This document shows, piece after piece, positions 32,523 through 56,959 of a DNA stretch of 64,000 nucleotides. The stretch is from assembly GCF_030384885.1 (NCBI RefSeq), contig NZ_CP128613.1; one strand, written 5' to 3'. The notes beneath the pieces were generated by a model. It searched no databases. It was not told where the DNA came from and saw only the letters and a list, made by a program, of their open reading frames with translations. The translations under genes and the position numbers were made by a program. Numbering within the stretch: the stretch's first letter is position 1; each line of letters begins with the position of its first letter. The stretch comes from Escherichia coli (GTDB taxonomy: Bacteria > Pseudomonadota > Gammaproteobacteria > Enterobacterales > Enterobacteriaceae).

Positions 32523-32550
32523 ATGCTCTGGATAAGGATTATCCAATTCT

Positions 32551-32660
32551 AAAAAAAAGCCCGGACGACTGTTCGGGCTTGTCTTTTTATATGTTGGAAA
32601 ATCAGTGGCAATGCAATGGCCCAACAGAAAATAAAATCTGTGACAATAAAGGCATATAAC
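32551..32660 (-). ncRNA. micC: MicC sRNA (Hfq-dependent repressor of ompC)
   Basis: Reverse complement of this interval matches the recalled MicC sequence GTTATATGCCTTTATTGTCACAG...GCCCGAACAGTCGTCCGGGCTTTTTTTT, including its intrinsic terminator. Confidence 0.85.
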
Positions 32661-32887
32661 CCGCGCAGAATAACGTATAGCAAATTAAAAGTATAATTTT
32701 TATTTTGTATGTATTACCTTCAATACATTCACCATACTTATTATCATTTCATAAGAATTATTTGATTAAGATTTAACTTAAGGCGTAACAAATGATATTT
32801 ATCGGCTAACGGAACTTCTCCTTTAGGATGTTTTTACTCCCCGAAGCCGGGGTAAAAGGCAAATAAAATAACTAAAGGATTTATTCA

Positions 32888-34021
32888 ATGAAAAGCAAAG
32901 CACTGGCACTCTTAATTCCGTCCCTGCTTGCAGCAGGTGCTGCACATGCAGCCGAAGTTTATAATAAAGACGGCAACAAATTAGATCTGTATGGCAAAGT
33001 TGATGGCCTGCATTATTTTTCTGATAATTCAGCGAAAGATGGCGACCAGAGCTATGCGCGTCTGGGTTTTAAAGGCGAAACCCAAATTAACGATCAACTT
33101 ACTGGCTACGGTCAATGGGAATACAATATTCAGGCAAACAACACTGAATCTTCAAAAAACCAGTCATGGACCCGTCTGGCATTTGCCGGACTGAAATTTG
33201 CAGATTACGGTTCTTTCGATTACGGACGTAATTATGGCGTAATGTACGACATCGAAGGCTGGACCGATATGCTGCCTGAATTTGGCGGTGACTCTTATAC
33301 CAATGCAGACAACTTTATGACTGGTCGTGCCAATGGCGTCGCGACTTATCGTAACACTGATTTCTTCGGTCTGGTAAATGGTCTGAACTTCGCGGTGCAG
33401 TATCAAGGTAACAACGAAGGAGCCAGTAATGGTCAGGAAGGCACCAACAACGGACGTGATGTTCGCCATGAAAACGGTGACGGCTGGGGTCTTTCCACAA
33501 CATATGATTTAGGCATGGGCTTTAGCGCTGGTGCGGCATACACCTCTTCTGACCGCACCAATGACCAGGTTAACCATACTGCGGCGGGTGGTGATAAAGC
33601 AGACGCGTGGACTGCTGGGCTAAAATACGATGCTAACAATATTTACCTGGCAACCATGTATTCAGAAACGCGTAATATGACCCCGTTTGGCGACAGCGAT
33701 TATGCTGTTGCAAACAAAACCCAGAACTTTGAAGTCACTGCACAGTACCAGTTTGATTTTGGTCTGCGTCCGGCAGTCTCTTTCCTGATGTCTAAAGGCC
33801 GTGACCTGCACGCTGCCGGTGGTGCAGACAACCCGGCAGGTGTTGATGATAAAGATCTGGTAAAATACGCCGATGTTGGCGCGACTTACTATTTCAATAA
33901 AAATATGTCCACTTACGTTGACTATAAAATCAACCTGTTGGATGAAGATGACAGCTTCTACGCTGCCAACGGCATCTCTACCGATGATATTGTCGCTTTA
34001 GGTCTGGTTTATCAGTTCTAA
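32888..34021 (+). CDS. ompN: outer-membrane porin OmpN
   Basis: 377-aa ORF with signal peptide and porin C-terminus ...GLVYQF. Confidence 0.92.
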
Positions 34022-34026
34022 ATCCT

Positions 34027-34054
34027 CCTGCCCGCTGTTATGGCGGGCTTTTTC
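34027..34054 (+). terminator. ompN intrinsic terminator
   Basis: Hairpin gcccgctgttatggcgggc followed by TTTTT. Confidence 0.7.
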
Positions 34055-34080
34055 TGCTTATTCTTCCTCCTTTGATCTAA

Positions 34081-34596
<516 letters not shown>

Positions 34597-34602
34597 CACT
34601 AA

Positions 34603-34629
34603 CGCCCGCACATTGCTGCGGGCTTTTTG
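34603..34629 (+). terminator. uspF intrinsic terminator
   Basis: Hairpin cccgcacattgctgcggg followed by CTTTTTG. Confidence 0.7.
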
Positions 34630-34771
34630 ATTCATTTCGCAAATGTGCTGACATTTTCCCCTCTAATCCGTACCATACACGCCACAGTTTTTATATCAGA
34701 TTTCTTATGCTGGGCGTTCCGGCATGACGCATACTCTTCTGATGCCATATAACGAATTGAGTCGCTTTTAA

Positions 34772-35707
34772 ATGTCGCAAAATCAAGAAATTAGTAAGAA
34801 AGAACAATACAATCTGAACAAATTACAAAAACGTCTGCGTCGTAACGTGGGCGAAGCCATTGCTGACTTCAATATGATTGAAGAAGGCGATCGCATCATG
34901 GTTTGCCTCTCCGGGGGTAAAGACAGCTATACCATGCTGGAGATTCTGCGCAATTTGCAGCAAAGCGCGCCAATCAATTTTTCGCTGGTGGCTGTTAACC
35001 TCGATCAAAAGCAACCGGGCTTCCCGGAACACGTTCTGCCCGAGTATCTTGAAAAGCTGGGCATTGAGTACAAGATTGTGGAAGAGAACACTTACGGTAT
35101 CGTGAAAGAGAAGATTCCGGAGGGCAAAACCACTTGCTCACTGTGTTCTCGTCTTCGTCGCGGAATTCTTTACCGTACCGCAACGGAACTGGGAGCGACG
35201 AAGATCGCGCTGGGTCACCATCGTGACGATATCCTGCAAACGTTGTTCTTAAATATGTTCTACGGCGGCAAGATGAAAGGTATGCCTCCGAAACTGATGA
35301 GCGATGATGGCAAACATATTGTGATTCGTCCGCTGGCCTACTGCCGCGAGAAAGATATTCAGCGCTTTGCCGATGCAAAAGCGTTCCCGATTATTCCGTG
35401 CAACCTGTGCGGTTCACAACCTAACCTGCAACGTCAGGTGATTGCTGACATGTTGCGTGACTGGGATAAACGTTATCCGGGGCGTATCGAGACGATGTTC
35501 AGCGCGATGCAGAATGTGGTGCCGTCGCATCTGTGCGATACCAACCTGTTCGATTTCAAAGGCATTACCCACGGTTCTGAAGTGGTTAACGGGGGTGATC
35601 TGGCGTTTGATCGCGAAGAGATCCCTCTACAACCGGCGGGTTGGCAGCCTGAAGAAGATGAAAATCAGTTGGATGAGTTACGACTGAATGTGGTTGAAGT
35701 GAAATAA
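34772..35707 (+). CDS. ttcA: tRNA 2-thiocytidine(32) synthetase TtcA, prophage-free allele
   Basis: 311-aa ORF with PP-loop SGGKDS and Cys motifs; the N-terminus [14 protein letters not shown] differs from the recalled K-12 Rac-lysogen form MQENQQITKKEQYN. Confidence 0.9.
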
Positions 35708-35835: not shown

Positions 35836-37209
35836 TTATTTTAATAACCGCACCCGGCACGTTTTTCCTTTAATCTTCCCGCCCTGTAACTGTTTCCATG
35901 CTTTATGAGCAACAGCCTGACGCACCGCAACATAGACATGCGCCGGATGCACGGCGATTTTGCCAATATCTGCGCCATCAAGCCCGATATCTCCTGTCAG
36001 CGCACCTAATACATCACCCGGGCGCATTTTGGCTTTTTTCCCGCCATCGATACATAACGTTGCCATTTCTGCTTCCAGCGGCACAATGGAACTATTAACT
36101 GGCGGCGTTTGCCAGTTAAGTTTTATCTGCAACATGTCAGAAATGATATTGGCCCGCTGTGCTTCTTCCGGGGCACAGAAACTGATCGCCAGACCGCTAT
36201 TTCCTGCACGCGCTGTACGCCCGATGCGATGTACATGAACTTCAGGGTCCCACGCCAGTTCAAAGTTCACTACCAGCTCAAGCGATTTAATATCAAGACC
36301 ACGCGCAGCAACATCCGTCGCAACCAGCACACGAGCGCTACCGTTAGCAAAACGTACCAGGGTCTGATCGCGGTCACGTTGCTCCAGATCGCCATGTAAC
36401 GACAATGCACTTTGCCCTATGTCATTCAGCGCGTCGCAGACAGCCTGACAATCTTTTTTGGTATTGCAAAACACCACGCAAGAGGATGGCTGATGCAAAC
36501 TTAATAACCGTTGCAACAGCGGAATTTTGCCTTTGCTGGATGTCTCATAAAATTGTTGTTCAATGGGAGGCAGAGCATCTGTTGAGTCAATTTCAATCGC
36601 CAATGGATCGCGTTGCACTCGTCCGCTGATTGCGGTGATGGCTTCCGGCCAGGTTGCCGAAAACAGAAGCGTCTGTCGAGATGCTGGCGCAAAACGGATA
36701 ACATCATCAATGGCATCGCTAAATCCCATATCCAGCATGCGATCGGCTTCATCCATCACCAGCATATTCAACGCATCCAGTGATACCGTGCCTTTTTGCA
36801 GATGGTCCAGCAAACGACCCGGGGTTGCCACGATAATATGCGGCGCATGTTGCAACGAATCACGCTGCATACCGAACGGTTGACCACCGCACAAAGTCAA
36901 AATTTTGGTATTTGGCAGAAAACGCGCCAGCCGACGCAATTCACCTGCCACCTGATCCGCCAGTTCACGCGTAGGGCACAGCACTAAAGCCTGGGTCTGA
37001 AATAGCGACGCATCAATTTTCTGTAGCAGCCCGAGGCCAAAAGCCGCCGTTTTGCCGCTGCCGGTTTTCGCCTGCACGCGAACATCTTTTCCGGCAAGGA
37101 TCGCCGGAAGCGCGGCGGCCTGCACCGGCGTCATAGTTAAATAACCCAACTCATTAAGGTTCGTGAGTTGGGCGGGAGGCAAAACATTCAGGGTAGAAAA
37201 AGCGGTCAC
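35836..37209 (-). CDS. dbpA: ATP-dependent DEAD-box RNA helicase DbpA
   Basis: 457-aa ORF, GTG start; Q-motif, Walker A AKTGSGKT, DEAD box VMDEAD, SAT. Confidence 0.93.
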   Translation of the reverse strand: MTAFSTLNVLPPAQLTNLNELGYLTMTPVQAAALPAILAGKDVRVQAKTGSGKTAAFGLGLLQKIDASLFQTQALVLCPTRELADQVAGELRRLARFLPNTKILTLCGGQPFGMQRDSLQHAPHIIVATPGRLLDHLQKGTVSLDALNMLVMDEADRMLDMGFSDAIDDVIRFAPASRQTLLFSATWPEAITAISGRVQRDPLAIEIDSTDALPPIEQQFYETSSKGKIPLLQRLLSLHQPSSCVVFCNTKKDCQAVCDALNDIGQSALSLHGDLEQRDRDQTLVRFANGSARVLVATDVAARGLDIKSLELVVNFELAWDPEVHVHRIGRTARAGNSGLAISFCAPEEAQRANIISDMLQIKLNWQTPPVNSSIVPLEAEMATLCIDGGKKAKMRPGDVLGALTGDIGLDGADIGKIAVHPAHVYVAVRQAVAHKAWKQLQGGKIKGKTCRVRLLK

Positions 37210-37239: not shown

Positions 37240-37413
37240 TTAGCAAGCGCGTATCCTCGCAGATCTACGCTCACGATGCGACAATTTAATCGGTTCTTCA
37301 TCGGGTGGTGGGTCAGGCATGGGTTGCGGGCGAGGGATTGGATCGGGCACTGGAACAGGATCGCCAGGAATCGGTTCAGGGACAGGAATTTGCAAATAAA
37401 TGAGTGTCGTCAT
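37240..37413 (-). CDS. 57-aa proline-rich small protein upstream of dbpA (absent from the ORF track)
   Basis: ATG at 37413 preceded by GGAGGG with ~5 nt spacing; hand translation MTTLIYLQIPVPEPIPGDPVPVPDPIPRPQPMPDPPPDEEPIKLSHRERRSARIRAC*; stop 28 nt before the dbpA start. Confidence 0.5.
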   Translation of the reverse strand: MTTLIYLQIPVPEPIPGDPVPVPDPIPRPQPMPDPPPDEEPIKLSHRERRSARIRAC

Positions 37414-37470
37414 ATTTCCCTCCGGTCATTGGGTGGACTCTTAAAGGGTAGACGCTGATATATAACAGGC

Positions 37471-37592
37471 AAAAAAAAGCCGACTCATCAAAGTCGGCGT
37501 CGTACGAATCAATTGTGCTATGCAGTAATTCAAAAAAGGAAGTAAGACAATATGGAGCGCAACGCCCATCGCTTGACGTTGCATTCACCTGC
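37471..37592 (-). ncRNA. fnrS: FnrS sRNA (FNR-activated, Hfq-dependent)
   Basis: Reverse complement matches the recalled FnrS sequence GCAGGTGAATGCAACGTCAAGCGATGGGCG...GACGCCGACTTTGATGAGTCGGCTTTTTTTT, with its terminator. Confidence 0.85.
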
Positions 37593-37627
37593 AAGAGAGA
37601 TATTGCCCTGAATGGGTAGAGAGTTTA

Positions 37628-37641
37628 TTGACTTCGCTCAA
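37628..37641. promoter_or_regulatory. FNR-binding site of the fnrS promoter
   Basis: TTGACttcgCTCAA, close to the FNR consensus TTGAT-N4-ATCAA, centred about 42 bp upstream of the inferred FnrS 5' end. Confidence 0.65.
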
Positions 37642-37687
37642 ACTTTGCGGCGTTTTTGTATACAGATAGTAGGGAAAATTGCTGTTG

Positions 37688-38692
<1,005 letters not shown>

Positions 38693-40969: not shown

Positions 40970-41063
40970 ACCGGCGCAGAGGAGACCATGCCGGATTTAA
41001 GACGCGGATGCACTGCTGTGTGTACTGTAGAGTCTGGCGGATGTCGACAGACTCTATTTTTTT
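40970..41063 (+). ncRNA. mcaS: McaS sRNA (formerly IsrA/IS061)
   Basis: Matches the recalled McaS sequence ACCGGCGCAGAGGAGAC...GTAGAGTCTGGCGGATGTCGACAGACTCTATTTTTTTAT with terminal hairpin and T-run. Confidence 0.8.
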
Positions 41064-41071
41064 ATGCAGTT

Positions 41072-47161: not shown

Positions 47162-47175
47162 TTGACAAATATCAA
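47162..47175. promoter_or_regulatory. FNR autoregulatory site in the fnr promoter
   Basis: TTGACaaatATCAA, a near-perfect FNR consensus, about 20 bp upstream of the fnr ATG. Confidence 0.7.
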
Positions 47176-47194: not shown

Positions 47195-47947
47195 ATGATC
47201 CCGGAAAAGCGAATTATACGGCGCATTCAGTCTGGCGGTTGTGCTATCCATTGCCAGGATTGCAGCATCAGCCAGCTTTGCATCCCGTTCACACTCAACG
47301 AACATGAGCTTGATCAGCTTGATAATATCATTGAGCGAAAGAAGCCTATTCAGAAAGGCCAGACGCTGTTTAAGGCTGGTGATGAACTTAAATCGCTTTA
47401 TGCCATCCGCTCCGGTACGATTAAAAGTTATACCATCACTGAGCAAGGCGACGAGCAAATCACTGGTTTCCATTTAGCAGGCGACCTGGTGGGATTTGAT
47501 GCCATCGGCAGTGGTCATCACCCAAGCTTCGCGCAGGCGCTGGAAACCTCGATGGTATGTGAAATCCCGTTCGAAACGCTGGACGATTTGTCCGGTAAAA
47601 TGCCGAATCTGCGTCAGCAGATGATGCGTCTGATGAGCGGTGAAATCAAAGGCGATCAGGACATGATCCTGCTGTTGTCGAAGAAAAATGCCGAGGAGCG
47701 TCTGGCTGCATTCATCTACAACCTGTCCCGTCGTTTTGCCCAACGCGGCTTCTCCCCTCGTGAATTCCGCCTGACGATGACTCGTGGCGATATCGGTAAC
47801 TATCTGGGCCTGACGGTAGAAACCATCAGCCGTCTGCTGGGTCGCTTCCAGAAAAGCGGTATGCTGGCAGTCAAAGGTAAATACATCACCATCGAAAATA
47901 ACGATGCGCTGGCCCAGCTTGCTGGTCACACGCGTAACGTTGCCTGA
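47195..47947 (+). CDS. fnr: anaerobic global regulator FNR
   Basis: 250-aa [32 protein letters not shown]... with N-terminal Fe-S Cys cluster and C-terminal HTH. Confidence 0.97.
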
Positions 47948-54907: not shown

Positions 54908-56959
54908 ATGACTATTATGGATGATAAACAAATTACGGTCTGGCTTAAACACAATTGCTGTTCAACGGACATTCCTGCCATTGCCGAGGCACTAACGAAC
55001 CATGCAGAATGGCTTTTAGAGCTAGCGCCAGATCCTATTGAACAAGGTTGTTCATGTTTACCGCCGACAGCTGCAGCCGGTATTTTTCTTGGCGCAGCGG
55101 CGATGGTTCACTGCGGCGAGGCTAGTGGTGCAGAAACCTGGCTCGAAGCAGCCATTACTGATTACCATTTCTTTAATCCAAATGGATATAGTTCATGGAG
55201 AGGCAGTACGCCTGTTTTTACAGCATTATCGCGTTACCCGGCATTAAGAATGGTGTTATTTAACGCCGCTTGCGCAATGGAAGACTGGAATAAAGCATCC
55301 GCTGTTCTTGAATCGCTTTTCCATGCCAGCGATGTAACGGAAGATAACCCTGTCGCCCCCAATTTTACCCCTTATGCGCTGAAAGCGTTTATCGCGGATT
55401 ACCACCCGTTAGGGCCTGCTTATTATGATGAAACCTGGTTGCTGGCAAAACAAGCGTGGTTAATTAATGCGGGCGTTCTGGATGAGCGAACCTGTAATAC
55501 CTGGAAGCAATATACCCGCCATTTGCGCCATTTGATCCATAATGCACAGTTTTCCGATGCGATCTCTTTTGTACGCAGTAAAAAAGAACCATTAAATCAT
55601 ATCCATACCTACTCAGACTTTTATCTCTATGCGATTGGTTTATTTTCTTCTACTGATCAGCTAAGTGAAGCGCTAACCTGGGTAAAACAATTAATCCGCA
55701 ACAATGATGGTCATTTCCATGATCTTTTCGTTTCAACTGGCGCAAAGCGCCGAATAAAGCCTGAACTTAGTACCTTGCTGAATAATCTCTTGTACAGCGC
55801 AGAGTTTCAGGCGTTGCAGGATAAATATCTCACCGTCGGACATGATGTTGTGCATTCTGGTCCCTTCATGTCACTTTATGAAAAGGTTCTTGGCGGTAAG
55901 TCCCGAAAGCGCTGCGCGATTAGTCGAAAATTAATCTCACCCGGCGAAGCGGTTTATGAATATCGTCAGCTGGATAGTGTGGAATATATTGCAGCGAAAG
56001 CGGCCTTTCAGACATCTGAGCTAAATAATATCGCCCACCGGCATCATAATGATAGTTATCAGTGGCATGAATTTGCCGTCCAATGGCCTCGTCGGGGTTC
56101 ACTTTCTCACCCAGATATTGCCCGTTATTTGTTTGAGCGCCAGGAAGGAAAATGCTTTGATGCCGCAGAGTTTATACAACTGATTGCGGAACCGTTTGTC
56201 TTTCCGATGCGTTTCATATGGGTTGCCGGGTTGTCCTTTGAATTACATCAGTATCCGGATGCCTATTTCGTAAATGACAATATGGCGGGTGAATTTGTTA
56301 ATCTCTGCTGGATGGCTATGAAATGCGGACATGCTGGCGACATTTTCAAACAACTGGCCCACGAGCCGCATGACGTTGCTGACCCTATTTACGCCATGCT
56401 CGCCACGTTTGACCGCGCTGATTGCCGTAGCGCCGCCGCCGCGCACTTTGGACAACCGGAACTACCGGAAATAATGGCACTGGCTTTCAGTTCGAGGTTA
56501 TCGCTCGACAGCGTCCTTACCATCGCTGAGTTTGGTAAAAATCAGCCGCGATTTTCACATGCGCTAGCAACGGCCCTCCTGCGTTACAACCTGCACATCT
56601 ACTCAAACTATATGCCGCAGGTTAACTGGTACCTTCAGGGGCTGGAACACTATGCTTTGGCAAAAGGCGGTCAACTTTTAAATTTCTTTGTGCATATTCC
56701 AGAACAAATTCCCGTTCTGGCGACCATGCTGGAACATGGCGTATTAGTGCGTGGGATCGGTGAAGGTGCCTATGATGGTTATGATAATTCAGCAAATTCA
56801 TTTCATCATGCCGCCGTGATGCACTGCCTCACGCACGCGCCGGAAAAAGTCCGCTACTGGATGGAAACACCCTGGATTCAGAACTATTTAGTGAATGCGC
56901 CGCTGCGTCAAACGGCGCGCCATGTGGAAGCCTGGCATAAAAAGTTTGGCATCAAATGA
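54908..56959 (+). CDS. uncharacterised ~680-aa protein encoded between tpx and tyrR; no family recognised
   Basis: Uninterrupted frame 54863..56959 (TTG at 54863; likely ATG at 54908 or 54917, with GGAG at 54902). No signal peptide, TM segment or Walker A seen; His/Cys-rich patches (HNCCSTD, GCSCLPP, RHLRHLIHN, HRHHNDSYQWHEF, KCGHAGD). Confidence 0.7.
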   Translation: MTIMDDKQITVWLKHNCCSTDIPAIAEALTNHAEWLLELAPDPIEQGCSCLPPTAAAGIFLGAAAMVHCGEASGAETWLEAAITDYHFFNPNGYSSWRGSTPVFTALSRYPALRMVLFNAACAMEDWNKASAVLESLFHASDVTEDNPVAPNFTPYALKAFIADYHPLGPAYYDETWLLAKQAWLINAGVLDERTCNTWKQYTRHLRHLIHNAQFSDAISFVRSKKEPLNHIHTYSDFYLYAIGLFSSTDQLSEALTWVKQLIRNNDGHFHDLFVSTGAKRRIKPELSTLLNNLLYSAEFQALQDKYLTVGHDVVHSGPFMSLYEKVLGGKSRKRCAISRKLISPGEAVYEYRQLDSVEYIAAKAAFQTSELNNIAHRHHNDSYQWHEFAVQWPRRGSLSHPDIARYLFERQEGKCFDAAEFIQLIAEPFVFPMRFIWVAGLSFELHQYPDAYFVNDNMAGEFVNLCWMAMKCGHAGDIFKQLAHEPHDVADPIYAMLATFDRADCRSAAAAHFGQPELPEIMALAFSSRLSLDSVLTIAEFGKNQPRFSHALATALLRYNLHIYSNYMPQVNWYLQGLEHYALAKGGQLLNFFVHIPEQIPVLATMLEHGVLVRGIGEGAYDGYDNSANSFHHAAVMHCLTHAPEKVRYWMETPWIQNYLVNAPLRQTARHVEAWHKKFGIK

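Follow-up and report, generated by a model that had tools for sequence, protein, structure and literature searches.

FnrS has been characterized since 2010. The K-12 RNA was reportedly described by Durand and Storz in 2010 and by Boysen et al. in 2010. Its synthesis sets in when cells become anaerobic and is controlled by FNR; anaerobic expression was seen by northern blot. As one of the Hfq-dependent small RNAs, it pairs directly with the 5′ UTR of iscR with the assistance of Hfq, and both translation and the mRNA level fall. The published K-12 targets include sodB, gpmA, cydDC, and iscR. An RNA of about 120 nt has been detected downstream of zntB in Yersinia pestis. In K-12, FNR ChIP-seq gave a peak upstream of fnrS, with a site at -42.5 and direct activation (Myers et al. 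2013). The same study defined class II sites as those at -41.5 ± 4, and attributed to FnrS the indirect repression by FNR of 11 operons, gpmA and cydDC among them (Myers et al. 2013).

We analyzed a stretch of 64,000 nucleotides of E. coli DNA (contig NZ_CP128613.1; hereafter the window), in which the segment 37471..37592 on the minus strand is almost certainly the fnrS gene of E. coli, encoding the FNR-activated, Hfq-dependent small RNA FnrS. The segment matches the K-12 FnrS sequence exactly (122/122 nt). In the curated record of K-12 MG1655, fnrS (b4699) is likewise a 122-nt noncoding RNA, at 1409129..1409250, flanked by zntB and ynaL. The whole window was scanned with Rfam 15 at gathering thresholds, which gave three matches in total. 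One of these was RF01796 (frnS/FnrS) at 37475..37592 on the minus strand, covering model positions 1-119 of 119 and scoring 134.8 bits (gathering score 60; E = 4.4e-24).

An initial annotation, made from the letters of the window, had placed a terminator-ended 122-nt FnrS transcript on the minus strand between zntB and dbpA and had proposed Rfam as a check. The strand, the identity, and the terminator are all borne out, by the exact K-12 match, by the terminator scan, and by a full-length Rfam match at more than twice the gathering score. The flanks need a small correction. zntB is indeed the neighbor on one side; ynaL intervenes on the other, so that the minus-strand order is zntB, fnrS, ynaL, dbpA, followed by ttcA on the plus strand. 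When the zntB-ynaL intergenic region was aligned with that of K-12, the two were identical from about -73 through the terminator. Five substitutions lie in the first 21 nt past the zntB stop codon, upstream of the fnrS promoter, and two lie downstream of the fnrS terminator. The coordinates of the locus and of related genes are collected in Table 1.

Table 1. Features of the fnrS locus and related genes in the window, with positions relative to the fnrS transcription start (+1) and, for promoter segments, conservation across the fnrS loci compared.
Feature	Window coordinates	Strand	Position relative to +1	Remarks
MicC	32543..32663	-		Full-length Rfam match, 125.3 bits (gathering score 90)
dbpA	35836..37209	-		Beyond ynaL
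ynaL	37240..37413	-		57 codons; immediate downstream neighbor of fnrS
fnrS	37471..37592	-		122-nt sRNA; +1 = G37592; 3′ end in the U-tail at 37471
Intrinsic terminator	37471..37498	-		Hairpin 37498..37479 plus eight U
Second stem-loop	37506..37531	-	nt 62-87	Rfam structure; mostly paired across genera
Seed, C/U-rich, CUUACUUCCUUUUUU	37532..37546	-	nt 47-61	Unpaired in the Rfam consensus and in the predicted minimum-energy fold
5′ stem-loop	37547..37592	-	nt 1-46	Rfam consensus structure; includes G4 and G5
-10 hexamer, CAATAT	37600..37605	-	-13..-8	No recognizable -35
FNR site, TTGAGCGAAGTCAA	37628..37641	-	-49..-36	Centre -42.5, class II position
A-tract	37653..37657	-	-65..-61	Moderately conserved; local peak in unconserved upstream DNA
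zntB	37688..38671	-		Stop 95 nt upstream of fnrS +1
McaS/IsrA	40970..41065	+		Full-length Rfam match, 117 bits (gathering score 42)
fnr	47195..47947	+		9.6 kb from fnrS
-10 region			-14..-7	1.25 bits/column
Box-to-(-10) spacer, 21 bp			-35..-15	0.39 bits/column
FNR half-site			-40..-36	1.67 bits/column
FNR half-site			-49..-45	1.50 bits/column
Far upstream			-90..-50	0.28 bits/column

The FNR box at 37628..37641 reads TTGACTTCGCTCAA on the plus strand and TTGAGCGAAGTCAA on the minus strand. It matches TTGAT-N4-ATCAA at 8 of the 10 consensus positions, and both cores (TTGA and TCAA) are intact. With +1 at 37592 its centre falls at -42.5. The initial annotation had given about 42 bp as the distance from the box to the 5′ end, which was right, and had read this as class II spacing. 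That reading holds as well, -42.5 being within 4 nt of -41.5 and equal to the published K-12 value. The position of the site, the intact cores, a weak -35, and a usable -10 together predict a class II FNR-dependent promoter at fnrS. A scan for the sigma-70 consensus found no complete promoter at fnrS, as expected of an activator-dependent promoter that lacks a -35. Since such a scan is uninformative for an activator-dependent promoter, we used conservation instead.

A box with two mismatches is not by itself beyond chance. The window contains 58 sites within two mismatches of TTGATN4ATCAA, and the core TTGAN6TCAA, present four times against 1.47 expected, is weakly enriched (4 was reached in 9 of 100 shuffles). 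These four cores are the fnrS site, the fnr promoter site, and two others, at 14699 and 20537, which fall within genes, ydbD and one for an autotransporter, and are most likely due to chance. The fnr gene and its box at 47162..47175 had also been pointed out in the initial annotation, which put the gene 10 kb away; both were confirmed. The box, TTGACAAATATCAA, is autoregulatory and ends 20 nt before the fnr ATG, and in the K-12 ChIP-seq study the fnr promoter has an FNR site at -0.5 that acts in repression (Myers et al. 2013). These counts leave room for the idea that the box at fnrS is itself a fortuitous resemblance and that another regulator drives the small RNA.

To follow conservation, a collection of species-representative genomes was scanned with a pattern located inside the 5′ stem-loop, which yielded at least 120 fnrS loci. 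The genera of Enterobacterales represented include Escherichia, Citrobacter, Enterobacter, relatives of Klebsiella, Yersinia, Serratia, Pantoea, Erwinia, Dickeya, Pectobacterium, Photorhabdus, Edwardsiella, Hafnia, and Arsenophonus, among others. Twenty bases within nt 5-33 were set by the search pattern, which makes conservation there partly circular; no such constraint applies to the promoter or to nt 34-122. There were 119 usable sequences, namely 116 loci from other genomes, the window, E. coli 2013C-4282, and K-12. Promoter sequences were anchored at +1 without gaps, and the best FNR-like site was sought in the 90 nt upstream. Among the 119 loci listed, this site was centred at -42.5 in 113 and at -41.5 in three (116/119). 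At that position the other three carry a GTCAA half-site, and sites elsewhere tie with it or slightly beat it on mismatches. The core positions of the box are 93-100% conserved across the genera listed. Of the 117 distinct sequences listed, 114 retain the A at -12 of the -10 hexamer and 114 its T at -8, and the 21 bp separating the box from the -10 are not conserved. The fnrS promoter is therefore a clean phylogenetic footprint, in which the box and the -10 stand at a fixed spacing and the DNA between them drifts freely.

The spacing from the box to +1 is thus kept in essentially all 119 loci listed, in otherwise unconserved surroundings, and the ChIP-seq peak for FNR lies on an identical K-12 sequence. 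Against these observations we consider a chance box extremely improbable, despite the number of two-mismatch sites and the weak enrichment of the core motif in the window. It is its position and its conservation across genera that make the FNR box convincing. The A-tract farther upstream is possibly a docking site for the C-terminal domain of the RNA polymerase alpha subunit upstream of FNR. Within the species, 5392 of the 5426 complete E. coli genomes contain the 171-bp interval from the terminator to the box, never more than once, and 5015 of them have it with at least 99% identity; strain 2013C-4282, the closest record among the matches listed, agrees with the window at every position (100%) of a 501-bp segment around fnrS.

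The predicted architecture of the RNA is that of the Rfam FnrS family, with a 5′ stem-loop, a seed, a second stem-loop, and a terminator. The terminator stem (37498..37479) has eight pairs, five of them G-C, and a 4-nt loop, and is followed by TTTTTTTT at 37478..37471. A comparable terminator is present in 114 of the 116 other loci listed. A terminator hairpin with a U-tail is the usual Hfq-binding 3′ module of such small RNAs, and the terminator and U8 tail of fnrS are typical in this respect. We aligned 106 distinct RNA sequences with MAFFT and projected the Rfam consensus structure on the alignment. Standard pairs occupied 90% of the structure cells in these 106 sequences, and the seed (nt 47-61) was about 70-99% conserved. 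In stem 1, both partners vary at pairs 10:35, 11:34, 17:28, and 18:27. In the second stem, changes on both sides were found at pair 64:85, those at 66:83 being mostly one-sided. Compensatory changes were abundant and strong in the terminator, at pairs 99:110, 100:109, and 101:108. The single-sequence fold was not significantly more stable than those of shuffled sequences (z = -1.67; 14 of 200 shuffles fold as well), so that the support for the structure comes from covariation and not from energy.

Among the published mutants, fnrS-III alters G4/G5, and the pairing mutants fnrS-II and fnrS-I, both within the seed, concern C47, U48, and U49 and U57-U59, respectively. For the mutants so described, G4/G5, C47-U49, and U57-U59 fall exactly on those bases in the window, which provides an independent check of the +1 numbering.

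We also considered the possibility that the transcript encodes a small protein rather than being purely a regulatory RNA. Two minus-strand open reading frames do overlap fnrS, one at 37441..37584 (ATG, 47 aa) and one at 37376..37594 (TTG, 72 aa). Yet, the conservation tracks the helices and the unpaired seed, not codons. Moreover, both frames extend beyond the 3′ end at 37471, so that the 122-nt RNA contains no stop codon for either of them; a small-protein reading of these frames was therefore excluded. That the transcript encodes a small protein is, in our estimation, extremely improbable.

The relationship of fnrS to its upstream neighbor raised another question. In 110 of the 120 loci listed, zntB precedes fnrS on the same strand, mostly at a distance of 71-139 nt, and the position of fnrS just downstream of zntB is thus conserved in these loci and in Y. 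pestis. No terminator-like hairpin was found between the zntB stop (37688) and the fnrS +1 (37592), i.e., in 37593..37688 on the minus strand, and 111 of the 116 other loci listed likewise showed no terminator in the 160 nt preceding fnrS. Since zntB has no terminator of its own, its mRNA probably ends at the fnrS terminator. Five loci, from Rahnella, Rouxiella, and relatives, have a different arrangement, in which zntB faces fnrS from 22-32 nt downstream on the other strand; in all five the FNR box of fnrS is kept at -42.5.

FnrS could then also, or instead, be the 3′ end of the zntB mRNA, read-through to the fnrS terminator being followed by processing that frees FnrS without FNR. The absence of a zntB terminator, here and in 111/116 listed loci, where the small RNA's own terminator is found in 114/116, fits this idea, as does the gene order in the 110 loci with zntB upstream on the same strand. 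However, the conserved FNR box and -10 show an independent promoter, FnrS is induced in the literature on an anaerobic shift under FNR control, and fnrS and its box persist in the Rahnella/Rouxiella group even though zntB is convergent there. We therefore regard release from zntB mRNA as unlikely and, if it occurs, as at most a minor addition to transcription from the fnrS promoter, not a replacement for it. There is a small chance that zntB mRNA carrying fnrS as its 3′ UTR gives low, FNR-independent levels of FnrS by processing, or that FNR bound at the fnrS promoter affects the formation of the zntB 3′ end. If true, either would link zinc transport and an anaerobic small RNA via a shared terminator.

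On the downstream side, ynaL encodes a proline-rich small protein of 57 residues that has been verified, and the published sequence is identical to that of the open reading frame in the window. It begins 58 nt past the fnrS terminator. Its Shine-Dalgarno sequence is GGAGGG, and the consensus scan showed no promoter-like site for it. Among the loci listed, only those from genera close to Escherichia have a recognizable ynaL 3′ of fnrS. A conserved coupling of fnrS to ynaL-dbpA was considered and rejected: dbpA lies within 300 nt downstream in 28 of the 120 listed loci, all from genera close to Escherichia.

In every respect tested, the FnrS of this strain was already known, and nothing new was found about it. 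The evidence computed here covers the identity of the gene, the geometry of its promoter, its terminator, and the conservation of the box, the -10, the seed, and the helices. FNR occupancy, anaerobic induction, Hfq dependence, and targets are predicted here from published work on K-12, in which the sequence is identical. The finding has little value as a discovery; its practical value is for annotation. In the PGAP record NZ_CP027579.1, the closest genome among the matches listed, FnrS is unannotated, as are MicC and McaS, the two other Rfam matches in the window, and all three are likewise missing from the PGAP annotation of other E. coli records among the matches listed. An annotation-based scan consequently sees an 'empty' intergenic region at fnrS.

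Other features of the window deserve mention. At 32888..35707, ttcA is directly followed by uspF and ompN. K-12 has the 23-kb Rac prophage beside ttcA, and we take this strain to have an empty Rac attachment region, which would explain why MicC and FnrS are just 5 kb apart here. The autotransporter gene (17395..22932, minus strand) is intact over its 5.5 kb, with pdxI and ydbL on either side; its K-12 counterpart, ydbA, is a pseudogene broken by insertion sequences. Finally, a gene for a 680-aa 'hypothetical protein' is present at 54917..56959 on the plus strand, with tpx and tyrR on either side. The protein had no Pfam or PADLOC match. The gene was found in 32 of 5426 complete E. coli genomes, always beside tyrR and with 90-99.5% identity, and strain 2013C-4282 is only 99.5% identical to the window over the 2.2-kb tpx-tyrR interval, so that the window stems from a close relative and not from the 2013C-4282 assembly. 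The GC content inside the gene falls to 0.43. It is a rare, uncharacterized accessory gene.

On the preferred reading, that of an FNR-activated small RNA with its own promoter, an FNR dimer would bind TTGAGCGAAGTCAA at -42.5 when oxygen is absent. Bound at this class II position, FNR would overlap the missing -35 and recruit RNA polymerase to the CAATAT -10. Transcription would start at G37592 and stop at the intrinsic terminator to give the 122-nt RNA. Together with Hfq, the seed (nt 47-61) and the 5′ end are expected to base-pair with the translation-initiation regions of messages dispensable without oxygen, so that translation would be blocked and mRNA levels lowered. Because FnrS represses its targets, FNR, an activator, would gain a repressing arm.

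This scheme has parallels in other small RNAs. Like FnrS, RyhB provides a transcription factor with an arm of opposite sign through an Hfq-dependent small RNA, and the targets named for both include sodA, sodB, marA, and the isc operon. In contrast to FnrS, RyhB has an unrelated sequence, its regulator is Fur, and its signal is iron. AniS of Neisseria is an anaerobically induced small RNA under a regulator of the FNR family; it has no sequence relationship to FnrS and is an analogue, not a member of the family. With respect to the promoter, fnrS resembles the class II FNR-activated promoters of dmsA, narG, nirB, ydhY, and others: a single FNR site lies no more than 4 nt from -41.5, the -10 is good, and the -35 is poor. 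Its site lies 1 bp further upstream than the commonest class II position, -41.5, and coincides with that of ydhY, also at -42.5. Unlike the promoters of the dmsA, narG, and nirB type, which drive operons for respiratory enzymes, fnrS makes a noncoding RNA. The comparison with K-12 fnrS (b4699) is the closest of all: both loci have the same 122 nt and the same terminator, share the promoter from about -73 with its box at -42.5, and lie between zntB and ynaL, and the gene is without any difference.
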